Origin: a plasmid
Length of the DNA stretch: 64,000 bases
Reading direction: 5' to 3' (one strand)
Assembly (NCBI RefSeq): GCF_054482525.1
Contig: NZ_JBTHVG010000003.1
Shown here: in pieces, positions 18,165 to 48,087 of the stretch
Position numbering within the stretch: position 1 is the first letter of the stretch
Layout of the letters: every line of letters starts with the position of its first letter
Notes under the pieces: model-generated
The model's input: the letters and a program-made list of their open reading frames with translations, nothing else
Databases searched by the model: none
Told to the model about the DNA's origin: nothing
Made by a program: the position numbers and the translations under genes

Positions 18165-18500
18165 AATCTTGAACCTTTTTTCACTCATTACAAGCCATGA
18201 CCTAGTGCGTAGATCATACGATCTTTAAACCTTATGTCATTGATTTATAAGTACATATAACAAAGATTATGTTAAATACTGTATGTATGTACAGCATCAA
18301 CAGTTGCCCCCCTCATATTGAGGTAATTGCTACATTCATACCACTATTCTTCTTATAGTATCGACATCCTGAATTATTGCACCCTACTGCTTTGTCTTTA
18401 GCTGTTCCGAATTAAAATTCATTGCTCAATTTGGATCACATGACGATCAGCGTATTCCTTTGCTTTATCAAAGTTAAGTTTTTAAAACATAAGATATGTA

Positions 18501-18962
18501 ATGACAAATTCTCAATCTGATTTTCCTTTGAACGATCAAAATTTTCAGGCAGATTTGCTGAAAATCAAAAAGGTTTTCGCCGACCTTATAACGCAGGCAT
18601 CAGATGGTAAGATACCCATAAGGTCTTCTCATGTACACGGCTTACACCATTTCGAGGAGCTCTACATCCGGGCAAGAGCAGGCATGTGTTCGGTCCTGGG
18701 ATATCCGGTCATGGTTGTTTCAACTATCTCAGTTAAAGAGCCCGGCACAGGCATTTTTAGAGCGCTTCTTGCAGAATTGAAATGTATTGCAGATGAACAA
18801 AATTACATTTTGAAAATTGAAAATGTACTGCCTCCCCTATTCCGCAAATACCTTATTCAAGAAGGTTTTGTTTTCCCAGGTGAACCTTGGATGTGTGGTT
18901 CCGGCTATTGGTTTAAGAACCCACAAGTACTTCATGAAAATATTGAGTTATTATCTGTTTAA
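18501..18962 (+). CDS. hypothetical protein
   Basis: 153-aa ORF; no family recognised. Confidence 0.45.
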   Translation: MTNSQSDFPLNDQNFQADLLKIKKVFADLITQASDGKIPIRSSHVHGLHHFEELYIRARAGMCSVLGYPVMVVSTISVKEPGTGIFRALLAELKCIADEQNYILKIENVLPPLFRKYLIQEGFVFPGEPWMCGSGYWFKNPQVLHENIELLSV

Positions 18963-24434: not shown

Positions 24435-24578
24435 ATGGCTAACTTTGTTTTAGGGCGACTGCCCTGCTGCGTAACATCGTTGCTGCTCCATAACATCAAA
24501 CATCGACCCACGGCGTAACGCGCTTGCTGCTTGGATGCCCGAGGCATAGACTGTACAAAAAAACAGTCATAACAAGCC
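24435..24578. promoter_or_regulatory. attI1 and cassette promoter region of a class 1 integron
   Basis: Position between the intI1 start and the first cassette; inferred, not motif-checked. Confidence 0.45.
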
Positions 24579-24775
24579 ATGAAAACCGCCACTGCGCCGT
24601 TACCACCGCTGCGTTCGGTCAAGGTTCTGGACCAGTTGCGTGAGCGCATACGCTACTTGCATTACAGTTTACGAACCGAACAGGCTTATGTCAACTGGGT
24701 TCGTGCCTTCATCCGTTTCCACGGTGTGCGTCACCCGGCAACCTTGGGCAGCAGCGAAGTCGAGGCATTTCTGTC
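24579..24775 (+). pseudogene. intI1: class 1 integrase IntI1, N-terminal ~65 codons, truncated by IS26
   Basis: [66 protein letters not shown] then IS26 at 24776. Confidence 0.85.
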
Positions 24776-43023: not shown

Positions 43024-43843
43024 GGCACTGTTGCAAAGTTAGCGATGAGGCAGCCTTTTGTCTTATTCAAAGGCCTTACATTTCAAAAACTCTGCTTACC
43101 AGGCGCATTTCGCCCAGGGGATCACCATAATAAAATGCTGAGGCCTGGCCTTTGCGTAGTGCACGCATCACCTCAATACCTTTGATGGTGGCGTAAGCCG
43201 TCTTCATGGATTTAAATCCCAGCGTGGCGTTGATTATCCGTTTCAGTTTGCCATGATCGCATTCAATCACGTTGTTCCGGTACTTAATCTGTCGGTGTTC
43301 AACGTCAGACGGGCACCGGCCTTCGCGTTTGAGCAGAGCAAGCGCGCGACCATAGGCGGGCGCTTTATCCGTGTTGATGAATCGTGGGATCTGCCACTTC
43401 TTCACGTTGTTGAGGATTTTACCCAGAAACCGGTATGCAGCTTTGCTGTTACGACGGGAGGAGAGATAAAAATCGACAGTGCGGCCCCGGCTGTCGACGG
43501 CCCGGTACAGATACGCCCAGCGGCCATTGACCTTCACGTAGGTTTCATCCATGTGCCACGGGCAAAGATCGGAAGGGTTACGCCAGTACCAGCGCAGCCG
43601 TTTTTCCATTTCAGGCGCATAACGCTGAACCCAGCGGTAAATCGTGGAGTGATCGACATTCACTCCGCGTTCAGCCAGCATCTCCTGCAGCTCACGGTAA
43701 CTGATGCCGTATTTGCAGTACCAGCGTACGGCCCACAGAATGATGTCACGCTGAAAATGCCGGCCTTTGAATGGGTTCATGTGCAGCTCCATCAGCAAAA
43801 GGGGATGATAAGTTTATCACCACCGACTATTTGCAACAGTGCC
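43024..43843 (-). mobile_element. tnp26: IS26 copy 7 (Tnp26 G184N variant)
   Basis: 820 bp; Tnp26 coding 43076-43780 on minus strand; Asn184; direct orientation with copy 6 around oqxAB. Confidence 0.95.
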
Positions 43844-44237: not shown

Positions 44238-44594
44238 TTATTTATCTTTCACCGGGTTCATTTCCCAGTATCTTTCACGTACGTTTTCTTGGCAATGGTC
44301 CGCTCGCTCCGGCGTGTCCCTTTTACGAGTAGCAAATGCTTCAATTACGGCATTCAAGTCTTTTTCTTTGATTTTAGATCCAACAGGCAAGTTTTCTTCA
44401 AACTCAGTCCTTACCAGTTCTTTCGTTTTTTTATAATCGGTTTCACTTTGGATTTCAGGTTTTAAACAAATATCGGCAACCATCACATCTGATTTGCCCG
44501 GGATCGGTTTTTTCCCGTTTTCAGATGCAAGGACCGCAGAGGAGGTAAAGGCGACAGACAGAGTTGCACATAACAGAAGGTATTTTAATTTCAT
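44238..44594 (-). CDS. secreted hypothetical protein
   Basis: 118-aa ORF with signal peptide (MKLKYLLLCATLSVAFTSSAVLA). Confidence 0.45.
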   Translation of the reverse strand: MKLKYLLLCATLSVAFTSSAVLASENGKKPIPGKSDVMVADICLKPEIQSETDYKKTKELVRTEFEENLPVGSKIKEKDLNAVIEAFATRKRDTPERADHCQENVRERYWEMNPVKDK

Positions 44595-44743: not shown

Positions 44744-45361
44744 TCAGGGGGAAATCAGATTGTTGTCGACCCAGTACTTGTGCAAACCTACCACCCAATT
44801 CCTGGAAATGGACGAAAGTTCATGCGCCAGTTCACGACAGCATTCAGGCGTAAAAATACGTATGGGTCCTGAAGTACCGATATCAACAGACATGATAAAC
44901 TCCAGAATGTTGCCATGGCATAGGTTGTTTCTCAGCCTGACAATTTCTGCTTCAGGTGTTCTCCCGGCTGCTACCTTAACCAACATATCCTGCTCGGCTG
45001 GAAATGAAAGTAATTCTACCGGCACCCCTTCCTGCTTGGCCTTTCTCAGTAAGGCATTACTCATTACGGAGATACCCTCCAAGTCCACCAGCTCAGGAGC
45101 TGCATGCTGATCGTTAACTGTTGGTTTCAGCATCAGCGACTTCAACGTAACCATGAGTGATGTTTCAATCCCGTTCAGGAAGCTCGTACAGGCCGGTATC
45201 CATAGTTCGTGATGCAACGCCTCGGTTGCTTGTTTAAAGAACCAGTCAATCACGGGGACAGTGTGATAATCATAATAGTGATTTATCTCGCTGAATCTTG
45301 ACATATAAGCATCGTACTCAGCCTGGTCTTCAGGAGATAAAAAATTTGGTGGGAGGGGCAT
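44744..45361 (-). CDS. hypothetical protein
   Basis: 205-aa ORF; no family recognised. Confidence 0.45.
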   Translation of the reverse strand: MPLPPNFLSPEDQAEYDAYMSRFSEINHYYDYHTVPVIDWFFKQATEALHHELWIPACTSFLNGIETSLMVTLKSLMLKPTVNDQHAAPELVDLEGISVMSNALLRKAKQEGVPVELLSFPAEQDMLVKVAAGRTPEAEIVRLRNNLCHGNILEFIMSVDIGTSGPIRIFTPECCRELAHELSSISRNWVVGLHKYWVDNNLISP

Positions 45362-45515
45362 CAGAATCCTTTCATCCTAGCTTGTATACCTTCTTCGTAG
45401 GCCAGCTCGCCATTATCGGTAAAAGATGGTTTTTGGTGTTTGTGACAAAGCTTAATTTTTCGTCAGGCTCGATAGCGTTACCGGAGAGATTTGATCTTTT
45501 CTCTGTAACTCGCAA

Positions 45516-45535
45516 TACTGTTTATACATACAGTA
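45516..45535. promoter_or_regulatory. LexA (SOS) box
   Basis: TACTGTTTATACATACAGTA, a close match to the TACTG-N10-CAGTA consensus, 20 bp upstream of the umuD-like start. Confidence 0.65.
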
Positions 45536-45554
45536 TGAGAATTCGAGTGTAGCT

Positions 45555-45989
45555 ATGTCTGTTATCCTTGAGCACATTAGCAACAAGCCTTACGAAATGG
45601 CACCTTTTTTCAGTGATTTACTGAGCTGTGGAGTGATGAGTCCGTGCGCCGGGCATGAAGATAATGAATTAAATTTGCATGAATATGTAGTCCGTAACCG
45701 CCCCTCAACCTTCTTTGTCAGGGCGGCGGGCCTCAGTATGATCAATGCCGGTATCAATGATGGCGCTATTCTGGTTGTGGATCGGTCTTTAACGGCACGA
45801 CACGGCTCTATCGTCGTTGCGCTGGTGGATGGAGAGTTCACGGTAAAGATCTTACACACGTATCCTGAGCTGCTTTTGATGCCTTCTAATCCAGCCTATA
45901 AGCCGATACGTGTAAATCCCGAATCCCTTGAGATATGGGGCGTCGTCACCTTTGCACTGAATCAGTTTAGCCATGTACATGCACGTTGA
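45555..45989 (+). CDS. umuD: UmuD/MucA-like self-cleaving accessory subunit of error-prone polymerase
   Basis: 144-aa ORF with LexA-like S24 peptidase features (cleavage-site-like CG, Ser/Lys dyad region). Confidence 0.8.
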   Translation: MSVILEHISNKPYEMAPFFSDLLSCGVMSPCAGHEDNELNLHEYVVRNRPSTFFVRAAGLSMINAGINDGAILVVDRSLTARHGSIVVALVDGEFTVKILHTYPELLLMPSNPAYKPIRVNPESLEIWGVVTFALNQFSHVHAR

Positions 45990-47232
45990 TATTAACGGGG
46001 CCTATGCGGCATTTGAGTGTGCGATGGATCCCAAGCTGGCAAAAAAGCCGCTCATCATAGCCAGCAATAACGATTCGTCCGTCATTGCAATGAATAAACT
46101 GGCTAAAAGCGTTGGTATTAAGCGTGGGACCCCAATTTTTAAGTGCAGGGATTTGATTCAGCAACACCAGATCGAAGTCCGGAGCTCTAACTTTACTTTG
46201 TATGAAGACTACTCAAATCGCTTCCATGAAACGCTGGAAAGCTTCGCGCCTCAATCGAGTCGATATAGCATAGATGAAAATTTCATGTTATTGAAAAACA
46301 TGAACAAGATAATAGATTATGAAGATTACGGCCGGTTGATCAGAAGTACACTTCTTCATAATCTGTCCCTTACCTGTGGTGTGGGGTGTTCAAGCACCAA
46401 AACCCTGGCTAAATTATGCACCTATGCGAGCAAACGATGGGCAGCTACAGGCGGGGTTGTAGTTTTGACTGATCAGGCCAGGATCAGGAAGCTCCTGGGC
46501 CTTATCAGTACCAGAGAAATATGGGGTATTGGTCAAAAGATCAGTGAACGCCTGTCGGCTTTCGGGATCATCACTGCCGGTGATTTTTATAATAGCGACG
46601 TTCGCTTTTTACGTAAAAGCTTTGGCGTTGAAATCGAGCGTACCTGGCGGGAACTGCATGGCGAACCATGTTTCCGGCTGCATGAATCCCCTCCTGTCCG
46701 GCAACAGATTATCGTTTCCAGAAGTTTTGGTCAGCGCCTTAATGAGATAGGCAAGCTACATGAGGCAGTTTCATTTTTTACCGCCCGGGCGGCAGAGCAG
46801 CTGCGCAAGGATGGCTCGTGGACCCGTCAAATCACAGTCTTCATTCAGAGCAGCAATTATGCGCAAGGTGAAAACCGCTACAGCAATTGTGGTATCGAGC
46901 CGCTTACCGCTACACAGGACACCCGCGATCTGGTTGATGCAGCCATGACCATCCTGAACCGCATTTACAAACCCGGGATAGCGTATGCGAAAGCTGGGGT
47001 AATGCTCTCCGCTATGACTGACGGCACAGAGCAACTCAGCCTGTTTGATGAGCGCCCGGCCAGGCCTGGCAGTCAGGCACTGATGAAAGTTATGGACCGG
47101 TTCAATAAAGAAAAGCGCGGAGCTCTGTTTTTGCTGGGGGAAGGCATTCAACAGGATTTTCGTATGAAACAGGCCATGCTATCACCGAGATATACGACCC
47201 GCTGGGATGAATTACTCGTTGTAAAAGCGTAG
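45973..47232 (+). CDS. umuC: UmuC/MucB-like Y-family DNA polymerase
   Basis: 419-aa ORF overlapping the umuD stop; N-terminus VDINGAYAAFE resembles the UmuC palm start; true start may be ATG at 45979. Confidence 0.85.
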   Translation: MYMHVDINGAYAAFECAMDPKLAKKPLIIASNNDSSVIAMNKLAKSVGIKRGTPIFKCRDLIQQHQIEVRSSNFTLYEDYSNRFHETLESFAPQSSRYSIDENFMLLKNMNKIIDYEDYGRLIRSTLLHNLSLTCGVGCSSTKTLAKLCTYASKRWAATGGVVVLTDQARIRKLLGLISTREIWGIGQKISERLSAFGIITAGDFYNSDVRFLRKSFGVEIERTWRELHGEPCFRLHESPPVRQQIIVSRSFGQRLNEIGKLHEAVSFFTARAAEQLRKDGSWTRQITVFIQSSNYAQGENRYSNCGIEPLTATQDTRDLVDAAMTILNRIYKPGIAYAKAGVMLSAMTDGTEQLSLFDERPARPGSQALMKVMDRFNKEKRGALFLLGEGIQQDFRMKQAMLSPRYTTRWDELLVVKA

Positions 47233-47277
47233 CGGCCATGACCGGCATGGCCGTACTCATCAAAAGTGAAAGTAACT

Positions 47278-48087
47278 TTAGGCCCCGCGAGCTTTTTCGA
47301 TTGCGCCCTGCAAAGTTGCTGCGTCCATAGCCCCGGGGATAAATGTGGTAGTCGCCGCATTCGGCTTTTTCATATTCATAATGATGAAGCCGGGTGTGCC
47401 GGTGATCCCAAGCGCTTCGCCCAGCTGCATGTTGCCGGAGATCACGTTTTCATATCGGTTTTTTTCCCTGTCAGAAAACGTGCTGTTAAACCCTGACTTA
47501 TCCACCACAGTATTAAAGTCGCTGAGTTCGAATTTGCGTTGAGAGGTCATGAAGGTATGAGCCACAGCCATCAGGTTGTTGTGGTATTTACGATAGGCTT
47601 CAGCACCGAAATTCTGATAGACGTGCAGACCCGTAGCGGCCCCCATGGCAGATACAGGTTTTGAACCGGCAAAAATCGGGAATTCTTTAAAGAAGAATTT
47701 TACATCTTTGCTCTGATTCATTACCGATTCAACAACAGGTGTAACCCGCATGCAGTAAATACACTGATAGTCGAAGAACTCGATTACCGCGACGTCGGCG
47801 TCATCCGGGCCGATGTTTGGCGTCTCCTTGGTATCCAGCAGAGCTGGCGCATATGGAATTATTCGTTCCACTGAGGCACTTACGTTCTGATTTTCCAGCG
47901 CCTTACCTGCTTCCACTAAATAATGGGGATTTTTTACCAGGTAAGTAGCGGCAATTTTGCCAATTTCTTCCTCACTGAGCACCTTCGGTTTAAAATAAGT
48001 TGCCGCGATTAACGCCGAGGCAGCGGTAGCAATTACCGCAGAAATTAAAATCGTGGCCATCGGTTTTAAATAAAATTCTTTAGACAT
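47278..48087 (-). CDS. DsbA-like thiol:disulfide oxidoreductase
   Basis: 269-aa ORF with N-terminal membrane anchor and thioredoxin-fold CIYC active site. Confidence 0.7.
   Translation of the reverse strand: MSKEFYLKPMATILISAVIATAASALIAATYFKPKVLSEEEIGKIAATYLVKNPHYLVEAGKALENQNVSASVERIIPYAPALLDTKETPNIGPDDADVAVIEFFDYQCIYCMRVTPVVESVMNQSKDVKFFFKEFPIFAGSKPVSAMGAATGLHVYQNFGAEAYRKYHNNLMAVAHTFMTSQRKFELSDFNTVVDKSGFNSTFSDREKNRYENVISGNMQLGEALGITGTPGFIIMNMKKPNAATTTFIPGAMDAATLQGAIEKARGA

Follow-up and report, generated by a model that had tools for sequence, protein, structure and literature searches.

A predicted SOS-controlled umuDC-type operon in the conserved backbone of IncHI plasmids

We analysed a 64,000-nucleotide stretch of plasmid DNA (contig NZ_JBTHVG010000003.1 of assembly GCF_054482525.1), referred to here as the window. 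Two genes on its plus strand, a umuD-like gene (45555–45989) followed by a umuC-like gene (45973–47232), form an operon in which the umuD-like gene comes first and the two reading frames overlap by 17 nt (45973–45989). An earlier note on this DNA, made by a model from the letters alone, had described overlapping umuD-like and umuC-like genes between positions 45516 and 47232. The overlap is as described and the limits are exact: a putative LexA box begins at 45516, and the stop codon of the umuC-like gene ends at 47232. At sequence level the earlier reading holds throughout, for the LexA box, for the umuD-like and umuC-like genes and for their place on a plasmid.

The first gene encodes a protein of 144 aa with the characters of the self-cleaving S24 peptidase subunit of DNA polymerase V (pol V). 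It matches the Pfam family Peptidase_S24 (PF00717, E = 2e-24) and the NCBIfam model NF007621, ‘pol V autoproteolytic subunit’, with 129.8 bits (cutoff 110), and its best match among solved structures is E. coli UmuD (8gmt_B, E = 1.3e-31). In alignments, Cys25-Gly26 coincides with the Cys24-Gly25 cleavage site of UmuD, and the ‘SCG’ found at this site is kept in all seven UmuD-like proteins of the IncHI lineage. The Ser/Lys dyad, loss of which the earlier note had singled out as evidence against its own reading, is present as Ser61 and Lys98, the counterparts by alignment of UmuD Ser60 and Lys97. Both residues are invariant in nine orthologues, and together with Gly26 they are invariant in an alignment with UmuD, MucA, an ImpAB-like pair and an IncL/M pair.

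The second gene encodes a protein of 419 aa that has the profile matches and conserved residues of the catalytic subunit of a Y-family polymerase. Its Pfam domains are IMS, IMS_C and DUF4113, the last of which (PF13438, E = 1.8e-17) is a UmuC-specific C-terminal domain. The protein scores 464.7 bits with the NCBIfam UmuC subfamily model NF002955 (cutoff 431), and all Pol IV models fall far under their cutoffs. The PDB copy searched contained no solved UmuC structure, and the catalytic residues were checked against alignments of Pol IV, Dpo4 and pol iota as well as the UmuC and MucB sequences. In the alignment with 7yll, a Pol IV of solved structure, ‘SIDE’ coincides with the catalytic motif. 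Asp6, Asp101 and Glu102, the acidic residues whose loss would likewise have spoken against the earlier reading, are all retained; with Asn8, Tyr11 and Glu15 they are invariant in an alignment with UmuC, MucB, and the ImpAB-like and IncL/M orthologues. The Tyr11 steric gate is preserved. A beta-clamp-binding motif, QLSLF, occupies residues 354–358, with Q354, L355, L357 and F358 invariant in the alignments. The first ATG of the gene (45973) aligns with Met1 of both UmuC and MucB; for the R478-type allele, PGAP starts umuC at the second ATG (45979). We considered Ala at position 10 of the polymerase as a possible oddity and dismissed it, as the residue is Met in MucB and in the IncL/M orthologue and the position varies across the family; in UmuC it is Phe10, a fidelity-relevant residue (PMC3401427).

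Purifying selection on both genes is strong, as comparison with the IncHI1B orthologues shows: pN is near 0.10 and pS 0.70–0.77. For the umuD-like gene pN was 0.105 and pS 0.70 (dN/dS ~0.06); for the umuC-like gene pN was 0.096 and pS 0.765, with synonymous sites saturated. These values bear on the suggestion that the two reading frames are decaying umuDC pseudogenes, for which the truncated copies on some plasmids (H35 and H75) might be cited. For the window that suggestion is refuted by full-length reading frames, scores over curated cutoffs, the retention of every catalytic and processing residue, and a pN far below pS, and we judge it exceedingly improbable.

Upstream of the umuD-like gene lies a putative LexA (SOS) box, TACTGTTTATACATACAGTA (45516–45535), 20 bp long and with two mismatches to the consensus TACTGTATATATATACAGTA. 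The E. coli umuDC box, TACTGTATATAAAAACAGTA, likewise has two mismatches. The box had been reported as near consensus and 20 bp from the umuD-like gene; the first point stands, and the gap between box and ATG is 19 nt. The intergenic region is AT-rich, and a palindrome of this kind could be a chance inverted repeat, with expression constitutive or under another regulator. Such an accident seems to us highly improbable. When up to three mismatches to the 20-mer consensus were allowed, the window contained two sites and 100 of 100 shuffles contained none, and the CTGT-N8-ACAG core occurred four times in the window against 0.67 expected. Moreover, CTG-N10-CAG is kept in seven of seven lineages, at a constant distance from an upstream TTGATC and amid variable neighbouring bases, and the sole change in its arms, in the IncHI1B box, is symmetric (CTGT/ACAG to CTGG/CCAG). 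We also rejected an assignment of the box to the divergent upstream gene of 205 aa: four relatives have a different, same-strand gene in that place, and their box is still found 19–24 nt before umuD. As judged from its sequence and conservation, the box is predicted to be a LexA operator that places the umuDC promoter under SOS control.

The comparison of lineages also delimits a probable promoter. Seven lineages, spanning 67–100% UmuC identity, have in common only the block TTTGATCTTT, a 17-nt spacer, the hexamer (A/G)ATACT and the LexA box; the surrounding intergenic DNA is otherwise unalignable. All 10 bases of TTTGATCTTT are invariant across the seven, and the block includes a candidate −35 hexamer, TTGATC (45491–45496, plus strand). 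Exactly 17 nt past it stands a candidate −10 hexamer, AATACT (45514–45519, plus strand), which shares its last four bases with the start of the LexA box and reads GATACT in the other lineages. The spacer between the two hexamers is 17 nt long in every lineage and freely variable in sequence. In E. coli K-12 umuDC, too, a TTGATC hexamer precedes the LexA box by 17 nt. An automatic sigma-70 consensus scan reported no promoter overlapping the LexA box, because the TTGATC/AATACT pair has 8 of 12 matches and the threshold is 9; the promoter call is therefore drawn entirely from the seven-lineage footprint.

We then compared the operon with known systems. The backbone genes named ‘mucAB’ in papers on R478 (IncHI2) and IncHI2 plasmids (PMC5955447, PMC6206278), and in R27 (IncHI1), are the same locus, without material difference from the window (PGAP umuD WP_000111290.1, umuC WP_042634445.1). 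The R478-type allele has 98% nucleotide identity and 98.6% UmuC protein identity to the window, whose own allele is that of ST3-type plasmids such as pS441. The IncHI1B allele, with the same flanking genes, is 81% and 84% identical in its two proteins, and the IncL/M pair is 48% and 44% identical. The likeness to E. coli umuDC extends to gene order, the Cys-Gly site, the Ser/Lys dyad, the Asp/Asp/Glu residues, Tyr11 and the QLxLF motif in the proteins, and to the two-mismatch LexA box, the upstream TTGATC and the 19-nt gap between box and ATG in the DNA. However, E. coli UmuD and UmuC are only 40% and 47% identical to the window proteins, their genes are chromosomal rather than plasmid-borne and overlap by 1 nt instead of 17, and the UmuD-like protein of the window carries a 6-residue C-terminal extension relative to UmuD.

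The earlier description of the operon as ‘mucAB-type’ holds in one respect, in that, like mucAB of pKM101/R46 (IncN; ‘pol RI’), it is a pol V orthologue made up of two overlapping genes, carried on a plasmid and preceded by a LexA box. It fails in another: MucA and MucB, at 48% and 45% identity, are no closer to the window pair than UmuD and UmuC are, the cleavage site is Ala-Gly in MucA but Cys-Gly in the window protein, and the plasmid backbone and neighbouring genes differ. We therefore do not assign the pair to MucAB proper, the IncN lineage, and the name ‘mucAB’ for the R478 and R27 genes appears, from these sequence comparisons, to be a historical label given by analogy. By its description, rumAB of R391/SXT (Rum pol) is likewise a mobile-element pol V orthologue carried with resistance genes, and two reports present it as a model for such polymerases speeding resistance evolution (PMC11602152, PMC9262582). 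Rum pol has been tested experimentally, whereas the IncHI enzyme is known here from sequence.

Gene integrity, the catalytic and processing residues, purifying selection, the operator/promoter footprint and backbone membership are established. The best explanation, in which we have high confidence, reads the locus as a umuDC-type operon, intact and under SOS regulation, whose product is a pol V orthologue; it is part of the conserved IncHI backbone and is carried here by an ST3-type IncHI2 plasmid. On the paradigms of E. coli umuDC and pKM101 mucAB, from which LexA binding, RecA*-dependent cleavage, polymerase activity and the size of any mutator effect are extrapolated, it would work as follows. 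In undamaged cells, host LexA dimers would occupy the operator at 45516–45535, which covers part of the −10 hexamer and the likely transcription start of the TTGATC-17 nt-AATACT promoter, and would so block transcription. DNA damage or replication arrest, as caused by UV or quinolones, would generate RecA-ssDNA filaments, provoke self-cleavage of LexA and derepress the operon. Both genes would be translated from a single mRNA, and their 17-nt overlap suggests translational coupling. On RecA*, the UmuD-like dimer would cleave itself at Cys25-Gly26 by means of Ser61 and Lys98, losing its N-terminal arm to yield a UmuD′-like product. UmuD′2 would bind the UmuC-like polymerase, RecA-ATP and the beta clamp (the latter through QLSLF) would join the complex, and the resulting UmuD′2C complex would bypass lesions at low fidelity, with better survival and a higher mutation frequency as the outcome. 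By homology, the raised mutation rate that the earlier note had proposed may also occur in the native plasmid; orthologues on other mobile elements can be weak, suppressed or nearly silent in their native setting (R391 rumAB, PMC8460599). For the IncHI version, the literature searched yielded no reports on binding by LexA, on induction, on cleavage of the UmuD-like protein or on mutagenesis.

We were interested in how widely the operon is distributed. Matches to the 2.2-kb region occur in 947 plasmid records, 900 of which (about 95%) span 80% or more of the query; the promoter region has matches in 1,129. Many IncHI2 plasmids carry the 2.2-kb region at 100% identity, and in them PGAP annotates umuD/umuC. 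UmuC identities within the IncHI lineage form a series of 100, 84, 78, 72, 71 and 67%, followed by a gap to 51%. By this measure the IncHI umuDC operons form a lineage of their own, with at least 67% UmuC identity inside it and at most 51% to all other orthologues. The operon is ordinary and already known, umuD/umuC being annotated in about a thousand sequenced plasmids; what our analysis adds is an operator and promoter map, a list of conserved residues and a selection analysis for the IncHI umuDC operon.

The operon is also dispensable: in some IncHI2 plasmids it is replaced or truncated, with truncated copies in H35 and H75 and a truncated mucA in p505108-MDR. Such losses in field plasmids, without apparent harm, are what one would see if the genes, although intact and LexA-regulated, produced little or no mutagenesis in the native 250-kb plasmid and were largely a cryptic passenger of the backbone, whether through low expression, tight repression, poor processing of the UmuD-like protein or plasmid-encoded suppression. 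In keeping with this, the literature searched contained no mutator or UV-protection phenotype for IncHI plasmids, and the LexA box is as near consensus as that of E. coli umuDC. A LexA box that near consensus implies tight repression and late induction. There is also a parallel in R391, whose rumAB, according to one report, is a potent mutator when subcloned yet poorly mutable in the native element (PMC8460599). On the other hand, both genes have remained under strong purifying selection across a divergence that saturates synonymous sites, the operator and promoter are conserved in seven lineages, and most of the matching IncHI2 records (900 of 947) extend over 80% or more of the 2.2-kb region; such wide conservation speaks against a useless operon, because decay would be expected. 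We regard a cryptic passenger as a serious possibility, though one we lean against. It concerns phenotype and leaves the identity of the locus untouched.

At the downstream end of the operon, a hairpin of the form GGCCAUG-loop-CAUGGCC (47229–47256, plus strand) begins inside the umuC stop codon and is a weak candidate terminator: folding of 47226–47285 gave an MFE of −18.8 kcal/mol (z = −2.0), but the structure lacks a U-tract and was not called by the terminator scan. The end of umuC is separated by 45 nt from a convergent DsbA-family gene, which, with a gene for a 203-aa lipoprotein, forms a downstream neighbourhood conserved in the IncHI lineage (synteny in six relative loci). On one side of the operon are IS26-flanked oqxAB, sul1, cmlA1 and aadA, the IS26/oqxAB multiresistance region lying ~1.8 kb away. 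This agrees with the earlier remark that the plasmid carries many resistance genes, the window matching ST3-type IncHI2 plasmids such as pS441. A class 1 integron integrase with its own LexA box lies ~21 kb from the operon.

The operon also adjoins the Tra1 transfer region (trhG/trhH, mobI, MobH relaxase and TraD, with mobI ~15 kb away). This proximity would suit a selected function in damage tolerance, helping the host to survive and the large plasmid to replicate following DNA damage, or following the SOS induction that comes with conjugative entry of ssDNA; mutagenesis would then be a by-product only, and no trait of weight for resistance evolution. The company of IncN mucAB, which is found among the anti-restriction genes ardB and ardK, points the same way, as does the label ‘UV protection’ given to mucA/mucB in the R27 literature (PMC7366339). 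In R27, however, the pair does not follow the regulation of the transfer genes: mucA and mucB belong to the small set whose expression depends neither on HtdA, the plasmid regulator, nor on temperature (PMC7366339), an independence that fits separate (LexA) control. Benefits through survival and through mutation are, in addition, not exclusive and are indistinguishable on present evidence. We consider damage tolerance as the selected function possible but rather doubtful.

If the intact SOS-regulated operon is active in its native plasmid, quinolone exposure could start mutagenesis and integron cassette shuffling together on one plasmid, because oqxAB keeps the host alive in the presence of the drug during SOS induction. 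Tentatively, and against our own expectation, this distinct mobile-element polymerase lineage (at most 51% identical to other groups) would then make IncHI2 plasmids self-contained, SOS-responsive ‘evolvability’ platforms. Were this true, IncHI2 would be comparable to the SXT/R391 elements, whose Rum pol, according to a recent report, lets more resistance mutations arise under antibiotic stress (PMC11602152). The operator/promoter map and the list of conserved residues make native activity of the IncHI enzyme directly testable. In Salmonella, E. coli and Enterobacter, IncHI2 plasmids are major vehicles of mcr, oqxAB and genes for ESBLs and carbapenemases, and an error-prone polymerase in the plasmid backbone, if induced by damage, could make more resistance mutations available under antibiotic stress.

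The earlier note described a LexA box ahead of overlapping umuD-like and umuC-like genes, and every element lies where it was placed: the 20-mer TACTGTTTATACATACAGTA (45516-45535), an ATG 19 nt beyond it that opens a umuD-like ORF of 144 codons (45555-45989, + strand), and a umuC-like ORF of 419 codons (45973-47232, +) that starts inside the first, with a 17-nt overlap. The box differs at two positions from the gammaproteobacterial LexA consensus TACTGTATATATATACAGTA, and the E. coli K-12 umuDC box, taken from the genome record (TACTGTATATAAAAACAGTA), likewise has two mismatches. Two sites in the 64-kb window match the consensus 20-mer with at most three mismatches, and the 16-mer core CTGT-N8-ACAG occurs four times against 0.67 expected. 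A chance palindrome was ruled out as an explanation of the box by the absence of such 20-mer matches from 100 dinucleotide-preserving shuffles and by a footprint shared across seven lineages.

This footprint emerged when the 90 nt that precede umuD were aligned for the seven lineages, whose intergenic DNA is otherwise unalignable. The sole conserved elements are, 5' to 3', TTTGATCTTT, which is invariant, a spacer fixed in length at 17 nt and free in sequence, (A/G)ATACT, the LexA box, with its CTG-N10-CAG kept in all seven, and the start codon 19-24 nt past the box. In the IncHI1B allele the box is TACTGGTTAAATATCCAGTA, in which CTGT/ACAG of the window has become CTGG/CCAG; such a mirrored change on both arms is what would be expected of a site read by a dimer. 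We propose TTGATC (45491-45496, +) and AATACT (45514-45519, +) as candidate -35 and -10 hexamers of the operon; if so read, the operator would overlap the 3' part of the -10 element and the likely start site. An automatic promoter scan did not report this pair, which scores 8/12, just under the scan threshold. E. coli umuDC also carries TTGATC upstream of its box, and its box-to-ATG gap is identical (19 nt).

The UmuD-like protein matches Pfam Peptidase_S24 (E = 2e-24), scores 129.8 bits on the NCBIfam pol V autoproteolytic subunit model (curated cutoff 110) and has E. coli UmuD as its closest solved structure (8gmt_B, E = 1.3e-31). Residue alignment pairs Cys25-Gly26 with the UmuD cleavage site Cys24-Gly25, Ser61 with Ser60 and Lys98 with Lys97; Gly26 and the Ser61/Lys98 dyad, whose loss would have spoken against the earlier reading, are invariant across UmuD, MucA, an ImpA-like protein and an IncL/M orthologue. 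The UmuC-like protein contains IMS, IMS_C and DUF4113 domains and exceeds the cutoff of the NCBIfam UmuC subfamily model (464.7 against 431 bits), with all NCBIfam Pol IV models far under their cutoffs. Its Asp6, Asn8, Tyr11 (the steric gate), Glu15, Asp101 and Glu102, together with the clamp-binding motif QLSLF (residues 354-358), are invariant in comparison with UmuC, MucB and two further plasmid orthologues, and its 'SIDE' catalytic motif aligns with that of one solved Pol IV. The catalytic acidic residues Asp6, Asp101 and Glu102 are thus kept, and the interpretation as an SOS-controlled polymerase operon is supported at the sequence level by the box and by two genes with key residues intact.

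When the window is set against the IncHI1B allele (75% nucleotide identity), pS is 0.70 for umuD and 0.765 for umuC, with synonymous sites at or near saturation, and pN is 0.105 and 0.096, respectively; dN/dS for umuD is ~0.06. The two IncHI2 alleles differ in umuD by nine synonymous and no non-synonymous changes. Both genes are kept by purifying selection. A pseudogene reading of the ORFs was ruled out, given scores above curated cutoffs, invariant key residues and pN far below pS.

The annotated start of umuC varies: PGAP uses the first ATG (45973) in plasmids with the window allele and the second, 6 nt downstream (window 45979; 2507 rather than 2501 in comparison locus L004), in the R478-type allele. 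The first is favoured by the alignment to UmuC and MucB. Among relatives L009-L011 (67-72% UmuC identity), the umuD stop lies one base before the umuC ATG (near 2495-2503), whereas the IncHI1/IncHI2 clade lacks this stop and has six extra codons, SHVHAR or PHVHAR (window 45967-45989). Judged from these alignments, the 17-nt overlap is a derived state, produced by stop codon loss and six-codon read-through.

The earlier label 'mucAB-type' names the operon by analogy. The window proteins are 48/45% identical to MucA/MucB, 40/47% to E. coli UmuD/UmuC, 48/44% to an IncL/M pair and 40/45% to an ImpAB-like pair, and for cleavage the UmuD-like protein shares Cys-Gly with UmuD, where MucA has Ala-Gly. 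UmuC-like relatives in a large protein collection stand at 100, 84, 78, 72, 71 and 67% identity, followed by a gap to 51%, and around the 67-84% relatives the gene setting is the same: downstream lie a DsbA-family gene and one for a 203-aa lipoprotein, and TraP is near. By these comparisons, the operon is an IncHI-type backbone lineage of its own and not a MucAB derivative.

The 2.2-kb region has matches in 947 plasmid records (900 with at least 80% coverage, 513 at ≥99% identity), nearly all of them conjugative plasmids and, among the matches listed, plasmids of 210-300 kb from Escherichia, Enterobacter and Salmonella. The window is closest to ST3-type IncHI2 plasmids such as pS441. The locus is already known, because PGAP names the genes umuD and umuC in inspected records (typed IncHI2A, MOBH, MPF_F), IncHI2 papers list them as the 'mucAB' mutagenesis-induction system of the R478 backbone (PMC5955447, PMC6206278) and IncHI1 plasmid R27 has mucA and mucB, 'UV protection' (PMC7366339).

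On the left, at a distance of 1.8 kb, the operon is flanked by an IS26 transposase gene (43076-43798) and an oqxAB region bracketed by IS26; to the right lies the Tra1 transfer region (trhG/trhH, mobI, MobH relaxase, TraD). Two upstream backbone genes, of 205 aa (44744-45361, -) and 118 aa (44238-44594, -; N-terminus resembling a signal peptide), have no Pfam or NCBIfam match and adjoin umuDC in IncHI2 and IncHI1B plasmids, not in more distant relatives. Where the window has the divergent 205-aa hypothetical gene, two relatives with 67% and 78% UmuC identity have the umuDC promoter immediately preceded, in the same orientation, by an SRAP-domain gene (SOS response-associated peptidase, PF02586; L011 1263-1931; L012 1219-1890). 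Downstream, a convergent DsbA-family gene (47278-48087, -) recalls the convergent dsbB that follows E. coli umuDC (L005 2201-2501), probably by coincidence; the neighbours of the IncHI gene are the transfer region and other thioredoxin-fold genes. In the IncHI2 plasmid pMCR9-57185 (NZ_OP950837.1; comparison locus L003, 1-2601), two adjacent tyrosine-recombinase/integrase genes replace umuD and the umuC 5' end, and the leftover umuC is just 88% identical; the replacement recalls integron-like elements inserting site-specifically in rulB of pWW0 (PMC4542609).

We regard the umuDC paradigm as the best-supported model; the sequence prerequisites of each step are present, and the steps themselves we infer. 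Host LexA at the operator would repress the operon until damage yields RecA-ssDNA filaments that promote LexA self-cleavage and derepression. The UmuD-like dimer on RecA* would then self-cleave at Cys25-Gly26 via Ser61 and Lys98. Low-fidelity synthesis across lesions would fall to UmuD'2 and the UmuC-like polymerase, with RecA-ATP as activator and QLSLF as the tether to the beta clamp. An independent hint at separate control comes from R27, whose mucA and mucB are among 39 non-transfer genes whose expression depends neither on temperature nor on HtdA, the plasmid-wide repressor (PMC7366339). In the plasmid that carries it, the operon may nevertheless be almost silent, a rival that concerns phenotype and not identity: rumAB is nearly silent in native R391 (PMC8460599), the operon can be dispensed with, since some field plasmids have it truncated or replaced, and none of the papers searched tests an IncHI plasmid for LexA binding, induction or mutagenesis. 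Both the purifying selection and the conservation of the operator argue against a useless operon. A second and non-exclusive rival takes damage tolerance as what is selected for, with mutagenesis as its by-product.

The window contains two further LexA-like sites. One, the 20-mer TACTGTATGTATGTACAGCA (18277-18296; three mismatches to consensus, none expected by chance), falls in a 336-bp stretch between genes of the IncHI2 backbone; a hypothetical ORF of 153 aa (18501-18962) begins ~200 nt past the site and is followed by a 135-aa ORF. A Pfam search of both proteins gave no match, and the stretch is conserved in >1000 plasmid records, its genes annotated as hypothetical proteins only; the backbone may thus hold here a gene under SOS control that has gone unrecognised. 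The core CTGTACAAAAAAACAG (24551-24566) lies 13 nt before an ORF with its ATG at 24580 (+), which we take to be IntI1, the integrase of class 1 integrons, whose promoter is known to be LexA-controlled; the window therefore holds two predicted SOS-controlled 'variation' functions. It is a tentative and rather doubtful proposition that native plasmids have an active polymerase of the IncHI lineage alongside the LexA-controlled integrase; if true, IncHI2 plasmids would pair an error-prone polymerase with an integron integrase as SOS-responsive evolvability platforms.
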